A program made the position numbers and the translations under genes. The notes below the pieces were generated by a model. That model had not been told where the DNA came from. It saw only the letters and a list, made by a program, of their open reading frames with translations, and made no database searches. Of a DNA stretch of 64,000 bases, positions 31,916-38,073 are shown piece by piece. Origin of the DNA: Minisyncoccota bacterium (GTDB lineage: Bacteria > Patescibacteriota > Minisyncoccia > Moranbacterales > UBA2206); contig JARLIA010000014.1 in NCBI GenBank assembly GCA_031291955.1, positions 666-64,665 of the forward strand, in the 5' to 3' direction. Within the stretch, counting starts at the first letter, position 1; every line of letters begins with the position of its first letter.

Positions 31916-32659
31916 TTATAGCACCAGCTGGATCTCCCAATAATCGCCAGAGAGTTTGCTAGTGAAATATTTATAGGGCAGATAAAAATAGCCTTGGTCG
32001 CCCCAGCGCGCGCCCCAAGAGTTTCGGCAAATAACGAGTTGTCTGCTGTCGTCATATCCGACCGCGACCACCGCATGTCCGCCCAAGACTCGCTCACTGG
32101 ATTCCGGCAGGGGCACGATGCCGGTTTTGGCCACCGCGTCAGATTCGAAACTTTCATAAACGCTAAAACCAAAAACCACCGGCCTGCCCGCCAAAGCTTT
32201 TTTCAAAGCCGCGATTTGGGTGTTCACGCGCACATATTTCACCACTTCATATTTCAGCGCATCGGCATAACACTTGGCCGCCGGTTTGATTTTGAATTTC
32301 GAAATGACATACAGCCATTCTTTTTCCGGACAGTCACCCTGATTTTTAACGCTTTTGATCCCGTCCCGGATCGACGCGCCGGCGTCGCTTTGAACCGTGT
32401 TTTCCATCGCCCTTTCATTATAATAGATGAACAGCCGGCTCGGACTGATGAACCGCTCGCCTTGTTTTTTTCTTTCATAGTCCACGGCCGCCGCGATAGC
32501 GTTGGCGGTACAGCTGCCCAAATCGCCTTGATTATAGACCGATGGCATCCCGTCGCGCCAGTCGACCGATTTGGGAATTTTTATTTTTCTCGCGATGAAC
32601 TTGAAGTCCCGTTGGTCCGGCGTATCCGGCTTCCAGCCGTAGCGGTTTTTGTTTTTCAT
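31916..32659 (-). CDS. Papain-like cysteine peptidase (C1 family)
   Basis: The catalytic Cys lies in QGDLGSCTANA, the His in GGHAVVAVGYDD, and the Asn/Trp in NSWGARWG. Confidence 0.7.
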   Translation of the reverse strand: MKNKNRYGWKPDTPDQRDFKFIARKIKIPKSVDWRDGMPSVYNQGDLGSCTANAIAAAVDYERKKQGERFISPSRLFIYYNERAMENTVQSDAGASIRDGIKSVKNQGDCPEKEWLYVISKFKIKPAAKCYADALKYEVVKYVRVNTQIAALKKALAGRPVVFGFSVYESFESDAVAKTGIVPLPESSERVLGGHAVVAVGYDDSRQLVICRNSWGARWGDQGYFYLPYKYFTSKLSGDYWEIQLVL

Positions 32660-33246: not shown

Positions 33247-33429
33247 TTATTTATATTTACGCACCCCTTTGAATTTTTCACCATTGGATTTTTGATCCAT
33301 AAATAAATGAGTGTCTGTATCTATTTTGACCCATCTTTTAATTTTAGGATTAAAAACCTGCTCTCTATTTTTAACTTCCCCTCTTCGCGCGTTATCTCCG
33401 AATGGTTTATTTTTCGCCATATCCATCAC
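33247..33429 (-). CDS. Small basic hypothetical protein (60 aa) overlapping the hsdS 3' end
   Basis: The ORF is present but has no assignable family. Confidence 0.3.
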   Translation of the reverse strand: MMDMAKNKPFGDNARRGEVKNREQVFNPKIKRWVKIDTDTHLFMDQKSNGEKFKGVRKYK

Positions 33430-34831
33430 CCCCTTTCTCTATAAATTCTTCAACCTTTCTTTTTGCTTCCTCTAATAATTCTTTTGATTTTTTCCGCGCT
33501 TCGTATGACTGAATCACAAGTTCAGTGATTTTTTTCTGGATTTCTTTTGGTAGAATTGGAATCAAAACATTTTTGATCTGCTGCGGTTTCCAGTGCGCAA
33601 TAACTGATCCGCCAGCATCACGCTCAGCTTGCATTTGACCAATTTGAGAATTCAAACACAGTGCCAAATATTCTGCCTCAACTTCTTTGCTTTTCAACTT
33701 CAGGCGCAACGTTCCGCCCGACACAATTCCTTGAATATCTTTTTTCAAAACAAAAGCAATTCCCGGGGTTGCATCTTTTGTTAGCAATATTTCACCTTTT
33801 TTTGGTTCAAAATCATCTTTCAATTTTTCATAAAGCTTATCACTTAGATATTTTTGATTGCTTTCCGTGATTCCGAATTTTGTCATGCTACTAACCCGGA
33901 TAAAAATCTTACCTTCTTCTTGATATTCTTCCGCCCCAACTTCAATTCCCTTTTTCATCGAAACTAAATCGCCCAACTTGTGCACATTATGTTTTGCAAC
34001 CCTATCTTCTATTATCTTATATTTCGGCTGAAAATATTCCGCATCGATTCGATGTGCAATTTCGATATCGGAAAGATTTATGATTGATGATAACTTTTCT
34101 ACATTATCAAAACCGTCCAATTCCAATTCTCCCAAAAGTAAGTTTTCGGCTTGTTGATATTGCGTTTTAGCTTTCTCAAATTCATCCAAGCCAGCCAACA
34201 CTATCATTTTTATTTTTTGTTGAGCTTCAAGATTAACTTCGGGAAGAATTATTTTTTCAAGGCTATACAAATTCATGTGTCCTTGAACGCCTCCACTTGA
34301 TCCTCTATCGATCTGAAATTTTCCATATTTTGAATTCAGAAAAGCGGCTAAATATTCTGGCAATAGATTCTCTTTTGGTTTTATCAAAATAATATCCGCG
34401 GAATTTGCAACGGGATGATTCTCTGTAACGACACTAGCATTGCCAATTGACCCACTTCTGGCAAGCAAGACAAACCCCGGATAAACCTGGCTCTTTTTCA
34501 GTTTTTTATGAAATTCTTCGTCAATATAAACAATACCATTTTCAAAATCTGTAACAAATTCATCAACGTTTTGTGTTCTCAAAAGTGGAACTCCATCATC
34601 GCAAAAATGGCTCGCCATAGAAGACACAAAACCAACATCAATCTTTGGCGCCATCTCCTCCAATGTTAGTAACTCAAATTTTTTAAGATTTTTTTCCAAA
34701 TCCAAATATTCCGGCTGATAATATTCAGCATCCATCCGCATCGCGCCTTCGAGTTGAGATTTTTGAATTATGGAAAAATTAGTCATAAAATTTTTGAAAT
34801 ATTCCCCACAAATGAACGTATTAATAGGCAT
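33407..34831 (-). CDS. hsdS: Restriction-modification specificity (S) subunit, HsdS-like with two target-recognition domains
   Basis: The conserved N-terminal block RMDAEYYQPEY and the central repeat RIDAEYFQPKY are present. The true start may be the internal Met (MTNFS...). Confidence 0.8.
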   Translation of the reverse strand: MPINTFICGEYFKNFMTNFSIIQKSQLEGAMRMDAEYYQPEYLDLEKNLKKFELLTLEEMAPKIDVGFVSSMASHFCDDGVPLLRTQNVDEFVTDFENGIVYIDEEFHKKLKKSQVYPGFVLLARSGSIGNASVVTENHPVANSADIILIKPKENLLPEYLAAFLNSKYGKFQIDRGSSGGVQGHMNLYSLEKIILPEVNLEAQQKIKMIVLAGLDEFEKAKTQYQQAENLLLGELELDGFDNVEKLSSIINLSDIEIAHRIDAEYFQPKYKIIEDRVAKHNVHKLGDLVSMKKGIEVGAEEYQEEGKIFIRVSSMTKFGITESNQKYLSDKLYEKLKDDFEPKKGEILLTKDATPGIAFVLKKDIQGIVSGGTLRLKLKSKEVEAEYLALCLNSQIGQMQAERDAGGSVIAHWKPQQIKNVLIPILPKEIQKKITELVIQSYEARKKSKELLEEAKRKVEEFIEKGGDGYGEK

Positions 34832-34950
34832 AATATCAAGCTGTGGATAACTCCTTGCATAATCATACAGCTATGGTATTATGAGCTTGGTACTTGTAAG
34901 GGCTTTGGCCCTCTCACGGTTAAAACGTATAAACCGTAGCAAGTGCCAAA

Positions 34951-35442
34951 TCAATCATCCTCCATATTTCCTGCATGCAGGATTTTTTTATTGTTAAATT
35001 TGTTACCTGAATTTTTTTGATTGTTTTTCCAAAAAGGAATTAGGCTCCAAAAAAATTTATTTCCACCTTCAATTTCTTTAACTATTATTTTTATTCTCGC
35101 ACCATTTATTATAGCAACAAACCCATAATAACTAACTTCAACCATTTTATATTCCCATCTAGAATTAATTTTTTGTTGTTCAAACTTCCTTGTTTCATAA
35201 AATTCTTGTAAGGTATTTGACTTTTCCAATATATGAGGAGCGAGTTTTAACAACTTCAATCTTATATATTGATCACTTTTTATTCGAGCCTTGTTTTTAT
35301 TTTTGAATTTCAAATGTTCCAATCCCTTCGTATTAAAAGAAATCTTTCCACCCAAATAAGGACAATGAATTTGGCCTATTGTTTTGTAATAATTTTCGGC
35401 CTCTTCTTTTACCTTTAAAAATTTTATTTGATCAATCTCCAT
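34951..35442 (-). CDS. Hypothetical 163-aa protein between the RM methyltransferase and the S subunit
   Basis: Its start overlaps the stop of the upstream gene. No motif was recognised. Confidence 0.45.
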   Translation of the reverse strand: MEIDQIKFLKVKEEAENYYKTIGQIHCPYLGGKISFNTKGLEHLKFKNKNKARIKSDQYIRLKLLKLAPHILEKSNTLQEFYETRKFEQQKINSRWEYKMVEVSYYGFVAIINGARIKIIVKEIEGGNKFFWSLIPFWKNNQKNSGNKFNNKKILHAGNMEDD

Positions 35443-37355
35443 TATTTTTTCATAAACTTCAAAAACTCCTCCGCAATTTCGTCTAGATCGTGATCAATAA
35501 TTTTCTTTCCGCCGGCATCATACATAACATTCCCCTCGCTGTCTTTTTTATAGATATAATCCCCTGAATTGTCTTTGCCGCCTTTCTTGGAAACTGCCAT
35601 AAAAATCGGATAATCTTCGGGGATTTTTTCATCCTCATTCCATTTTTGCAAAAACAGAACTGATGTTTTTGTGCCGGTGTGCGGTTTGAAGGTGTTGTCA
35701 TGCAGTCCCACCACTGCCAACAGACGCGCCTTGCTCAAAACAAACCGCCGCACATATTCCATCTGCGTATTGTTCAAAACTCCTTGCGGCAAAACGATTG
35801 CCATCCTTCCGCCGGGCTTGAGAAAATTAAGATCGCGTTCAATGAACAAAACGTCGCGTGAAACTTTGTTTTGATGCTTGGATGTTTTTTCAAAATTTTT
35901 GTCATGTTTAAATCCAAGATCATAACGATTCAAAATCACACCTTTGATCTCTCCAGCAAATGGCGGATTGGTCAGCACGATGTCAAAATTAAAGTCAGTC
36001 ATTTTTTCCTGGTTTCTTCGGTTCTCATCAGAATCCTTGAATGTTCGCAAAAACGGTCGGAATTTCGCATGCGCTTGTTCATTCCAAACTTCACTGTCCA
36101 GCGAGTTAGCATTGGTCACATTTGTTTTACCATCGCCTGCAATGAGCATCATAGCTTTTCCAATTTTCACTGAGCGCGGATCAAAATCAATTCCGTACAA
36201 ATGTTTTTCCGCATAATCTTTTTGCTTTGCTTTGTAATCATCTTCGAAATTTTTCTTGTTTATTTCTTTGTCCCACACATATTGCATAGCATGCAACAAA
36301 AATCCGCAACTGCCCGCAGCAGTATCAATGATGAAATCTTTTGAAGTCGGCGCCAGCATTTTCACCGCCATGTCAATCACATGACGCGGCGTGAAATATT
36401 GGCCTTTTTCGCCTTTAGCATCCAAGTTAATCAGATATTCAAAGGCATCATCGATCACCTGCAGATTAGAACCAAAAAGGCGATATTTTTGCAAAAGAGA
36501 AATTGCCGGCACGATGGCATTTTCCGGAATTTCTATTTCGTCATTCGACTTGAAAACATCACGCCACTGATTTTTGGAATCCTCAAAAAGCCGCTGAATA
36601 TTGTTTAGATTTTCCTTGTTAGAAGCGCCGGCAATCACCCGAAATCTGCGATTTTCATTTCTAGGCGTTTCGATTTCATCATACAGCTTGGCATAAATAA
36701 GTTTGAAAATTTCATCAAACGAATCCACGCCGCTGTTGGCCAAAACAACTTCTTGCAAATCATAAATGAGTTGTTGCAAATTAGGAATTTCATCAAGATC
36801 ACTATATACGATTTTCTTTGAACGTACATCATCAACCGTTTCGTTAAATTTGGGAATTTCCGGCAAGTCCTCAAAAAGATTTGGGTCGGTTCGTAAAATA
36901 TTATTTTGAAGTTTTCCGTCTGTCAAAACGAGAATTGGCGCACCGGTCGCATTGGCGTAGCTTTTCAATTGCCCCAGACCATCTTTCACGTCGGGTTTTT
37001 TCACTTCAACCACAAGATAGGGAGTTTTGCCGTCTTCACGATAAATCACAATGTCCGCACGTTTTTTCCCAATCTCTCGCCCAAATTGCACATCTACTTC
37101 CACATCCATCCGGTCAAGTGGATATTTATAAAAATTTAATAATTTATAAATCATGAGTTGACGAACTATCTCCTCCGGCTTAGCTACTAACTTTTTATTT
37201 CTTTTTAAACATGGCAAATAAAACTTTCCTTCTTTTTCAAAAAGATCCAAGACTTCTTCAATTTTAATTCCCTCAAAAACAGAAAGTCCATATTGCATAT
37301 CCGGATTGCGAAAAATTTTCCCCAAAATTTCACTTGTCTTTTTTTGATCCGCCAT
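35442..37355 (-). CDS. Fused restriction-modification enzyme: N-terminal HsdR-N-like PD-(D/E)xK nuclease domain plus gamma-class N6-adenine DNA methyltransferase (BcgI-A-like / Type IIB-IIG)
   Basis: The N-terminus shows RADIVIY...PYLVVEVKKP...APILVLTDG, matching the HsdR N-terminal fold. The MTase motif DIVLTNPPFAG is present. At 637 aa there is no helicase and no separate hsdR. Confidence 0.7.
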   Translation of the reverse strand: MADQKKTSEILGKIFRNPDMQYGLSVFEGIKIEEVLDLFEKEGKFYLPCLKRNKKLVAKPEEIVRQLMIYKLLNFYKYPLDRMDVEVDVQFGREIGKKRADIVIYREDGKTPYLVVEVKKPDVKDGLGQLKSYANATGAPILVLTDGKLQNNILRTDPNLFEDLPEIPKFNETVDDVRSKKIVYSDLDEIPNLQQLIYDLQEVVLANSGVDSFDEIFKLIYAKLYDEIETPRNENRRFRVIAGASNKENLNNIQRLFEDSKNQWRDVFKSNDEIEIPENAIVPAISLLQKYRLFGSNLQVIDDAFEYLINLDAKGEKGQYFTPRHVIDMAVKMLAPTSKDFIIDTAAGSCGFLLHAMQYVWDKEINKKNFEDDYKAKQKDYAEKHLYGIDFDPRSVKIGKAMMLIAGDGKTNVTNANSLDSEVWNEQAHAKFRPFLRTFKDSDENRRNQEKMTDFNFDIVLTNPPFAGEIKGVILNRYDLGFKHDKNFEKTSKHQNKVSRDVLFIERDLNFLKPGGRMAIVLPQGVLNNTQMEYVRRFVLSKARLLAVVGLHDNTFKPHTGTKTSVLFLQKWNEDEKIPEDYPIFMAVSKKGGKDNSGDYIYKKDSEGNVMYDAGGKKIIDHDLDEIAEEFLKFMKK

Positions 37356-37356
37356 A

Positions 37357-37998
37357 TTATTTGTTTATTTTAGAAAGATTTAGAATTACCTTGCCTTGAA
37401 ATTGAACTTCGCCGGGAATAATTATCATTTTTTCATAAGCCGGATTTTCCGGTTGCAAATATCTTTTTCCGCCATCAGCGACAAAGCGCTTTACAGTCGT
37501 GCCCGCATCCGTTCGCGCAATCACAATATCACCGCTTTTATATTCTTTTGATTCTTTGATAAGCAGACTATCACCATCATCGATTCCGGCATTAATCATA
37601 GAATCTCCAGAAATTTGAATAACAAAAACTCTATCTTTTGATTCATTTATTTTTTCATTTTTTAAAACTTTTTCAGATATTGGGAAAAAGGTGAATGCAT
37701 TAGCAAAAGAATCGAGATATGATCCGCCGGCGCTAACGCCAGCCATTTTAATCAAAGGATCTCTTCCAATTTCCTTATAACCCAAAGGCAAAATTCTTAT
37801 CCCTCTCGCCTGACCATCTTCTCTTTTTATATATTCCTTTCTTTCAAGCGTATCTAAAAAGTTTATAACCGACTGGTTCGAAGATACGCCCAGCTCTTCC
37901 TTAAAATCAGAAATAGACGGCGGAAAGCCGGAACTTTCCAAAAATGTGTAAATAAATTCTAAAACTTTTTTTTGTTTTGGGGTAAGTTTAAAACTCAT
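37357..37998 (-). CDS. lexA: LexA-type repressor (winged-helix plus S24 peptidase)
   Basis: A LexA-like N-terminal HTH is followed by a C-terminal S24 domain with ISGDSM (Ser) and TTVKRF (Lys). Its stop is 1 nt from the RM start codon. Confidence 0.8.
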   Translation of the reverse strand: MSFKLTPKQKKVLEFIYTFLESSGFPPSISDFKEELGVSSNQSVINFLDTLERKEYIKREDGQARGIRILPLGYKEIGRDPLIKMAGVSAGGSYLDSFANAFTFFPISEKVLKNEKINESKDRVFVIQISGDSMINAGIDDGDSLLIKESKEYKSGDIVIARTDAGTTVKRFVADGGKRYLQPENPAYEKMIIIPGEVQFQGKVILNLSKINK

Positions 37999-38073
37999 AT
38001 ACCCATTATATATGACTGTTTGTACACGTCAAGTTCTTTACATAAGGCTATTTATTCAAAACTGTTGATAACT

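Follow-up and report, generated by a model that had tools for sequence, protein, structure and literature searches.

The window analyzed here, a stretch of 64,000 nucleotides (nt) from a Minisyncoccota bacterium (Patescibacteriota; contig JARLIA010000014.1 of assembly GCA_031291955.1, positions 666 to 64,665), contains a small cassette made up of an open reading frame (ORF) of 163 amino acids (aa) at positions 34951 to 35442 of the window (minus strand) and a predicted small RNA (sRNA) gene that converges on it from the plus strand (34889 to 34990). Both lie inside a restriction-modification (RM) operon. The gene upstream from the ORF (35442 to 37355, minus strand) encodes an RM subunit of 637 aa with an N-terminal PD-(D/E)xK-type domain (HSDR_N_2) and a gamma-class N6-adenine methyltransferase (MTase) domain (N6_Mtase), recognized by Pfam, PADLOC, and NCBIfam, and the downstream gene, hsdS (33407 to 34831, minus strand), encodes a specificity (S) subunit of 474 aa with two target recognition domains (TRDs), matched by Methylase_S in two stretches and by the PADLOC model Specificity_I. 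The initial annotation, made from the sequence alone, had placed the ORF correctly as wedged between the RM enzyme and its specificity subunit. It had also described the start codon as overlapping the upstream stop in an ATGA-type coupling; the overlap is there, but the ATG shares a single base with a TAA stop, giving TAATG (...AAATAATGGAG).

The 163-aa ORF is a genuine conserved gene and not a chance reading frame. A search of 5.8 billion proteins retrieved 175 homologues at an E value of ≤1e-3, mostly of about 160 aa and derived chiefly from metagenome-assembled genomes (MAGs) of Parcubacteria/Patescibacteria, with an identical protein in one "Candidatus Pacebacteria" MAG. When 1.84 billion cluster representatives were searched with a profile, 1177 clusters at 50% identity were retrieved, 504 of them at an E value of ≤1e-10. 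Among 35 diverse members, 17 residues are invariant (P28, F36, G40, H43, R53, Y59, R61, S75, T77, Q79, W96, F108, F131, S133, P136, W138, and G158). The AlphaFold2 model is confident (pLDDT of 84.7) and describes an alpha+beta protein, predicted to be soluble, with four long antiparallel strands and with N-terminal helices and a small hairpin packed on top of them.

No recognizable motif had been noticed in this protein at first, a view that has to be corrected, as it matches the Pfam family LPD3 (PF18798) with 28.1 bits against a cutoff of 27, over model positions 5 to 113 of 114. The same family, with no competing one, was matched by 21 of the 35 members at an E value of ≤0.01. Since the score is borderline, we consider the family a divergent branch of LPD3. 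Foldseek, one of the checks proposed with the initial annotation, gave a mixed outcome: no relative was found in PDB, either with this program or by sequence search, but the top matches in BFVD are LPD3-annotated phage proteins, with probabilities of 0.92 to 0.97 although with weak E values (0.02 to 0.4) and TM scores of 0.39 to 0.48. The best 150 profile matches span 77 to 220 aa, mostly around 160 aa, with no large multidomain protein among them. NCBIfam and PHROGs returned nothing usable for the ORF, no similarity to ToxN, AbiQ, or CptN was found, and Pfam, PADLOC, and NCBIfam detected neither an ABC-type ATPase nor an anticodon nuclease domain. A phage or plasmid origin was not supported, as no relatives of the protein were found in IMG/VR, INPHARED, and PLSDB.

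Between the ORF and the annotated ATG of hsdS (34831) there are 119 nt (34832 to 34950), close to the 120 nt estimated initially. This spacer had been taken as empty, but it appears to hold a gene of its own, an independent sRNA gene that runs on the plus strand toward the ORF and has a predicted sigma-70 promoter and intrinsic terminator. The promoter (34855 to 34882, plus strand) consists of a TTGCAT -35 box (34855 to 34860), a 16-nt spacer, and an extended -10 box, TGgTATTAT (34874 to 34882), and the transcript, with its 5' end inferred from the promoter spacing, would be about 100 nt long. The first ca. 60 nt (34889 to 34947, plus strand) constitute a three-way-junction domain, after which a 3' extension antisense to the last 13 ORF codons leads into the terminator. 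The latter, located by a terminator scan at 34969 to 34989 (plus strand), is formed by the hairpin TCCTGCATGCAGGA plus seven T's and falls within the ORF codons for KKILHAG. KKILHAG is itself a conserved C-terminal motif of the protein, and the same bases (an A-run plus the palindrome) form the terminator on the opposite strand, a dual coding seen in the subgroup of loci with short spacers (see below). Just upstream of the -35 box lies a perfect DnaA-box 9-mer, TTATCCACA (34842 to 34850, read on the minus strand).

For comparison, a pattern scan of 185,579 species genomes (one per species) yielded 147 relatives of the protein, nearly all from lineages of the candidate phyla radiation (CPR) and a few from other phyla; 80 loci were kept (L001 to L080). 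The DNA directly downstream of the ORF shows 70 to 94% nucleotide identity across loci with only 45 to 65% protein identity, and an element of about 72 nt was recovered by iterated nhmmer in 78 of 79 downstream regions. In an alignment of 76 loci (A4), read on the strand opposite to the ORF, the positions of a TTGAC -35 box and of an extended -10 box, TGnTATAAT, are at least 90% conserved, the spacer of about 17 nt between them is not conserved in sequence, and the RNA begins 6 to 8 nt past the -10. In 31 of 75 loci, the 90 nt that precede the RNA contain a DnaA box with at most one mismatch, at or next to the -35 box, and 16 of these boxes, that of the window among them, are perfect. Of random 90-nt stretches, only 2.8% have such a box, a pattern that suggests DnaA-dependent control of the sRNA.

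The RNA would fold into a closing stem of 9 bp (P1), a GGGC-UUYG-GCCC hairpin (P2), and a third stem, ACGGUU...AACCGU (P3), with a variable loop of 7 to 25 nt. Downstream of this domain, a terminator-like hairpin plus T-run was found in 57 of the 76 loci, and in 10 the T-run comes directly after P1. The RNA end follows one of three layouts. In most loci, a spacer of 30 to 36 nt holds an A-tract/hairpin/T-tract terminator that could be shared by both transcripts; in the second layout, which is that of the window, the spacer has 1 to 15 nt and is too short, so that hairpin and T-run lie within the last ORF codons; in the third, the T-run follows P1 immediately. The conserved RNA domain and the ORF do not overlap in the first and third layouts, which argues against a purely antisense mechanism.

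Covariation across the 76 loci is extensive. RNAalifold predicted 18 pairs, 13 of them with compensatory changes, and in a 19-pair structure 96.3% of the cells are paired, versus 27 to 51% when the partner columns are slid, with 13 pairs varying on both sides (matched by 0 of 500 shuffles). The RNA strand was settled as plus on account of the promoter and of 134 G-U cells that become A-C mismatches on the ORF strand (96.3% paired versus 89.4%). An independent set of 100 sequences found from the RNA alone gave 96.5% pairing, again with 0 of 500 shuffles. The only match of the covariance model in the window is at 34886 to 34950, plus strand (72.5 bits, E value of 6e-19), and the minimum free energy fold of the window sequence alone is the consensus structure plus the terminator, with a z-score of -4.5.

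Our initial reading, a 3' untranslated region structure on the ORF strand, was rejected in view of the promoter, the terminators, and the G-U pattern. A search of Rfam 15 at the RNA coordinates gave no match on either strand (E value of ≤10 for the window and ≤1 for seven other loci), the unmatched families including tRNA, tmRNA, DUF3800-I to XI, drum, and skipping-rope, and ARAGORN detected no tRNA or tmRNA in the window. A tRNA-like RNA was also discarded, since both of these searches were negative, a single-stranded NCCA end is absent, and the hairpin loops vary in length. The same happened with a 13/15 complementarity between the 5' part of the sRNA and the ORF codons of the invariant S-T-Q motif, which is not conserved (mean of 8.3/15 versus 7.4 in shuffles). 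We found no published description of this RNA or of LPD3 function in the literature searched.

ORF and sRNA gene form a two-gene cassette of ca. 0.65 kb whose members very rarely occur apart. In the loci retrieved with the protein, the covariance model located the RNA next to the ORF in 79 of 80, and in the remaining one (L067) only 59 nt of contig are left after the ORF. Starting from the RNA, a scan of metagenomes with an RNA-only pattern gave 120 loci, 115 of them informative; the 100 tested with the covariance model all scored between 47 and 79 bits. An LPD3-like ORF was adjacent and convergent in 103 of the 115, shortened in 2, and absent in 10. Protein and RNA sequences diverge together, as their pairwise identities correlate (Mantel r of 0.64, 0 of 999 permutations). 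One locus (L078, 8516 to 10233) carries two diverged LPD3-like genes in tandem, which share 35% and 48% identity with the protein of the window. An sRNA copy comes after each of them, the second copy being far more divergent (20 versus 66 bits). The association is asymmetric in the way to be expected of a toxin and its antitoxin: besides the 10 loci just mentioned, three extra RNA copies without an ORF were found in L052 and L059, and frameshifted or shortened ORFs accompany an intact RNA in L062, L016, L122, and L169, but no intact ORF without RNA was seen wherever flanking sequence was present. The single IMG/VR contig with the sRNA pattern (L087, 6287 to 6346) has it at the very end of its 6.3 kb, cut by the contig end, and is therefore uninformative about phage carriage of the cassette.

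In loci without the ORF, other genes, often for predicted RNases, converge on the RNA. These encode an NYN RNase (L114, 304 to 1125, and L199, 1153 to 2044), a PBECR3/PBECR2 RNase, also of 163 aa and directly after an MTase gene (L098, 3352 to 3957), a Gp49/HigB toxin with a helix-turn-helix (HTH) antitoxin (L165, 3777 to 4530, and L173), a DUF3800 protein after a type IIG enzyme (L126), RusA (L121), and, judging by its sequence, a putative insertion sequence transposase (L192). In L052 (7097 to 9727), too, sRNA copies without an LPD3-like ORF lie beside other predicted RNases. The presence of sRNA copies next to predicted RNases of the PBECR3, NYN, and Gp49/HigB types suggests that the RNA may swap partners. 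A comparison of the family profile with the PBECR3 protein of L098 by hhalign revealed no similarity.

The contexts of the cassette are very diverse. The RM-ORF arrangement of the window is repeated in seven loci, six with a lexA gene upstream and six with an S gene (the others are at a contig edge), and in three further loci the ORF is beside an RM_A-like gene. In all, about 15 of 75 upstream neighbors are RM genes, of BsaXI/BcgI-like, type III Mod, MmeI-like, ISP-like, and HsdR types, and ResIII-domain genes are among the downstream neighbors in the type III Mod loci. The co-occurrence with BcgI-like RM genes, proposed as a check in the initial annotation, exists in about 10 of 80 loci, but some 80% of the family has no adjacent RM gene. 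As an RM-specific accessory the ORF does not stand, since only those ca. 10 loci have the RM layout of the window, and elsewhere the cassette follows genes for DnaK, MreB, EF-G, BipA, Mur ligase, or RecG or is beside an integrase. The upstream gene is on the ORF strand in 64 of 75 loci, often abutting the ORF, and synteny is not conserved even in the closest relatives. Directly after MTase-bearing genes, the cassette was observed in several unrelated RM types (L022, L026, L055, L037, and L033), sometimes between the two genes of an RM operon; L022 and L026 have a type III Mod gene upstream and a large gene downstream of it.

Outside RM operons, a Parcubacteria MAG (L085, 7001 to 9650) has the cassette and four small unannotated ORFs as an insertion of ca. 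2.7 kb between fusA and tuf, in an otherwise canonical str operon (rpsL-rpsG-fusA-tuf-rpsJ). Another copy follows an integrase and an excisionase-like HTH gene and adjoins HEPN_AbiV, and yet another is beside tRNA and tmRNA genes. Among the loci returned, every one came from a different assembly. Terminal repeats of the kind found at transposon ends were not detected, with only AT-rich chance repeats present. From the variety of these contexts, the cassette is best described as a mobile and self-contained unit.

As for the operon of the window, we assign it from its genes as a type IIB-like RM system of the BsaXI/BcgI kind. A nuclease and a gamma-class N6-adenine MTase in one protein and a separate S subunit with two TRDs are the gene features of this group. 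The label BcgI-like, used initially, is reasonable because the closest solved structure to the 637-aa protein is the type IIB RM subunit RM.BsaXI (8w0p, E value of 1.3e-25). A homologue of the RM gene on a Klebsiella plasmid (43% identity) shows the form of the operon without insertion, as the S gene begins there 8 nt after the MTase gene with nothing in between. In the window, the cassette has been inserted between the RM and S subunit genes.

The RM gene is preceded by a LexA-family gene of 213 aa (37357 to 37998, minus strand; TIGR00498, 141 bits against a cutoff of 111) with a strong, near-consensus promoter (38005 to 38032, minus strand; TTGACG-16-TATAAT). A LexA-family gene directly precedes the RM gene in six related loci (L001, L004, L008, L009, L011, and L012), and more distant LexA-like genes occur in the vicinity of the LPD3-like ORF in L021, L027, and L056, where the RM genes are absent. 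This gene may be a regulator of the island rather than the SOS repressor of the cell. It is the first gene of a block of about 5.3 kb with low GC content (0.31 to 0.41 across 33.0 to 38.4 kb versus 0.45 to 0.49 in the flanks) that spans the lexA-like gene, the RM subunit, the ORF, the sRNA, the S subunit, and a 57-aa ORF, and that is probably a horizontally acquired island.

This last ORF (33247 to 33420, minus strand) had been listed as an unexplained ORF of 60 aa (33247 to 33429) overlapping the 3' end of hsdS. It is a genuine small gene, already catalogued as the defense-island candidate PDC-S38 (PADLOC, E value of 7.5e-26, positions 1 to 55 of 57), and it also matches phrog_12550. Homology begins at the ATG at 33420, so that its true length is probably 57 aa, with a 14-nt overlap with the end of hsdS. 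It has 117 homologues across phyla (Bacteroidota, Marinimicrobia, and Proteobacteria among them), and one homologue belongs to an integrase/RES/PycTM/relaxase island. The gene was not detected in the other 80 loci, which indicates that it is unrelated to the cassette. Just outside the island, a 247-aa ORF (31916 to 32659, minus strand) has, by its sequence, the look of a papain-family (C1) cysteine peptidase.

We tentatively read the cassette by analogy to toxin-antitoxin (TA) systems, as an RNA-targeting effector held in check by a cognate sRNA, an interpretation to which we would give somewhat less than an even chance. The LPD3-like protein would be an RNA-binding or RNA-cleaving effector, and the strongly transcribed sRNA would bind it and keep it harmless, as RNA antitoxins do in type III systems. 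Should the supply of sRNA fail, for instance because a phage shuts off transcription in the host or because the island is lost, the effector would be freed, and the cassette could thus act as an addiction or abortive infection (Abi) module that rides in defense islands and RM operons. What leads us to this reading is the near-obligate pairing and codivergence of ORF and RNA, the existence of RNA-only copies and ORF pseudogenes with no intact ORF seen without RNA, the strong consensus promoter of the RNA, and the neighborhoods with defense, TA, integrase, and RM genes, together with the replacement of the ORF by recognized RNases. A role as defense or toxin-like accessory, the former proposed initially, survives as the best available reading, with relatives enriched beside RM genes (about 15 of 75 upstream neighbors), but not in the forms of a PrrC-like protein, a known Abi protein (no PADLOC hit), or a DNA mimic.

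Several observations weigh against this interpretation. PADLOC, whose use had been recommended initially, has no model for the 163-aa protein and gave no hit. The layout of the cassette, with a single RNA located downstream and convergent, is unlike every described type III system, and this, with the lack of homology to known toxins, is what keeps our confidence in the mechanism just below an even chance. The DnaA box at the RNA promoter in ca. 40% of the loci hints at regulation by the cell cycle over phage sensing. Many copies lie among housekeeping genes, each returned locus in a different assembly, which also fits a lineage-specific ribonucleoprotein, and an independent function of the RNA would explain the RNA-only loci just as well. 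The wider proposal that the cassette represents a new protein-RNA class of TA or defense systems, in which a three-way-junction sRNA, driven by a promoter that often has a DnaA box, would neutralize interchangeable RNA-targeting effectors (mostly LPD3-like, occasionally NYN or PBECR3), is possible but rather doubtful.

One alternative is an accessory coupled to RM in the manner of PrrC/EcoprrI, in which the RM complex would restrain a latent effector until a phage inhibits restriction, and the sRNA would have a secondary, regulatory role. The translational coupling of the ORF to the MTase-bearing gene, in the window and in the ca. 10 of 80 loci of the same layout, fits this idea, as do the ORFs that follow type III Mod, MmeI-like, ISP-like, and HsdR genes and the PBECR3 RNase occupying the same post-MTase slot in L098. 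We nevertheless consider it quite unlikely, as about 80% of the family lacks a neighboring RM gene but nearly always has the sRNA, and the protein has only 163 aa and neither ATPase nor anticodon nuclease domains.

The cassette might instead encode a lineage-specific cellular ribonucleoprotein of Patescibacteria, comparable to SmpB-tmRNA or Ro-Y RNA, with a noncoding RNA (ncRNA) perhaps controlled by DnaA and the LPD3-like protein as its chaperone or processing partner, free of any toxin or defense role. Such a particle would account for the strong conservation of RNA structure and promoter, the DnaA boxes (31 of 75 loci), the origin of every returned locus from a different assembly, the many housekeeping neighbors, and the RNA-only loci. 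Less easily explained are the patchy distribution (147 relatives in 185,579 species genomes), the loss of synteny even among the closest relatives, the pseudogenized ORFs, and the copies found in an integrase-flanked island, in a low-GC island, and in an insertion that splits the universal fusA-tuf pair, all of which make this an improbable explanation.

We attach a similarly small probability to control in cis, by which the sRNA would, in the way of type I systems such as txpA/RatA, pair with the transcript of the convergent ORF, or would target read-through RNA and so control the ORF or shield the downstream hsdS from transcription arriving from upstream. The position of the window terminator inside the last ORF codons gives the two transcripts about 40 nt in common, a transcript running past the end of the ORF would be complementary to the sRNA over its full length, and the shared A-tract/hairpin/T-tract terminator of most loci is potentially bidirectional. 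However, the RNA domain is clear of the ORF wherever the terminator fills a spacer of 30 to 36 nt, and also in the 10 loci with the T-run after P1. Besides, conservation is concentrated in the folded three-way junction, where covariation tolerates G-U pairs on the strand of the RNA itself, as a sign of a structured RNA that acts in trans; the 13/15 complementarity that the window shows between sRNA and ORF interior is not conserved, and a soluble protein of 163 aa is not a small hydrophobic type I toxin. Finally, a conserved site at the DNA level (recombination site, origin, or operator) is highly improbable. A DnaA-box motif is nearby and the element borders a mobile cassette, but the promoter hexamers are both conserved and correctly spaced, terminators are present, only one of the strands tolerates the 134 G-U pairs, and terminal repeats were not found.

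Whatever its role, the RNA constitutes a new family with hundreds of members, strong covariation, a predicted promoter and terminator of its own, and no Rfam entry. To our knowledge, almost no ncRNAs or TA systems have been characterized in CPR/Patescibacteria. The link between this RNA and LPD3, a domain common in the polyvalent proteins of phages and plasmids, makes the function of the latter testable, and if the cassette did represent a new TA or defense class, it would provide the first functional handle on LPD3 of those proteins. It would also point to a recurring tactic of lodging modules between the methylase and the restriction or specificity genes of RM operons. The gene seemingly "embedded" in the RM operon is an inserted self-contained cassette that recurs in several RM types, which bears on the assembly and regulation of defense islands. 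A word of caution also follows for annotation, as short "intergenic spacers" of operons can conceal convergent sRNA genes.

Compared to known systems, the operon of the window resembles BsaXI and BcgI in its RM subunit, with an N-terminal nuclease-type domain plus MTase, and in the separate two-TRD S subunit, and differs in having the cassette between the two genes and a lexA-like gene ahead of them. Type III TA systems (ToxIN, CptIN, and TenpIN) are, like the cassette, two-component modules of a protein and an ncRNA that form cognate, coevolving pairs in mobile or defense contexts, and the proposed logic, an RNA that keeps a protein effector inactive, would be common to both. However, their RNA is an array of short tandem repeats located upstream of the toxin on the same strand, with a terminator in between, and it is processed by the toxin, whereas the RNA of the cassette is a single three-way-junction sRNA that has a predicted promoter to itself and lies downstream from the protein gene, on which it converges. 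Neither this tandem-repeat upstream layout nor a protein of the ToxN/AbiQ, CptN, or TenpN families is present. Type I systems differ as well, for their toxins are hydrophobic and shorter than 60 aa, while the protein described here is a soluble alpha+beta protein of 163 aa, and in most loci the RNA domain does not overlap the ORF.

PrrC/EcoprrI and RloC are anticodon nucleases embedded in type I RM operons. The ORF resembles them as a small effector gene inside an RM operon, with RNA as its suspected target, but the 163-aa protein has no ABC-ATPase or anticodon nuclease motif, no more than about 10 of 80 loci lie within an RM-S operon, with most relatives not linked to RM at all, and its constant partner is the sRNA; it does not belong with them.

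LPD3 was originally defined in polyvalent proteins of phages and conjugative elements, where no function was assigned to it (Iyer et al. 2017, PMC5512222). The likeness extends to the entire domain, with a profile match just over the Pfam threshold, and the best fold matches in BFVD, although weak, are LPD3 annotated. In its classical form, LPD3 is one module of multidomain proteins of very large size that phages or plasmids inject, whereas the members of this family are standalone proteins of about 160 aa, chromosomal and paired with an sRNA, with no match in the phage and plasmid collections.

On the RNA side, DUF3800-I to XI, drum, and skipping-rope were described as protein-associated ncRNA motifs that end in terminators, with no function assigned (Weinberg et al. 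2017, PMC5737381). These are also small structured RNAs with intrinsic terminators, tied to one neighboring protein family and sometimes located on the opposite strand (PMC5737381), and the orphan sRNA copy of L126 adjoins a DUF3800 gene. The sRNA of the cassette differs from them in its structure, the lack of a match in Rfam, its LPD3-like partner, and its hosts, mostly CPR/Patescibacteria. Even so, these protein-associated, terminator-ended motifs (PMC5737381) are the nearest precedent for the RNA of the cassette.

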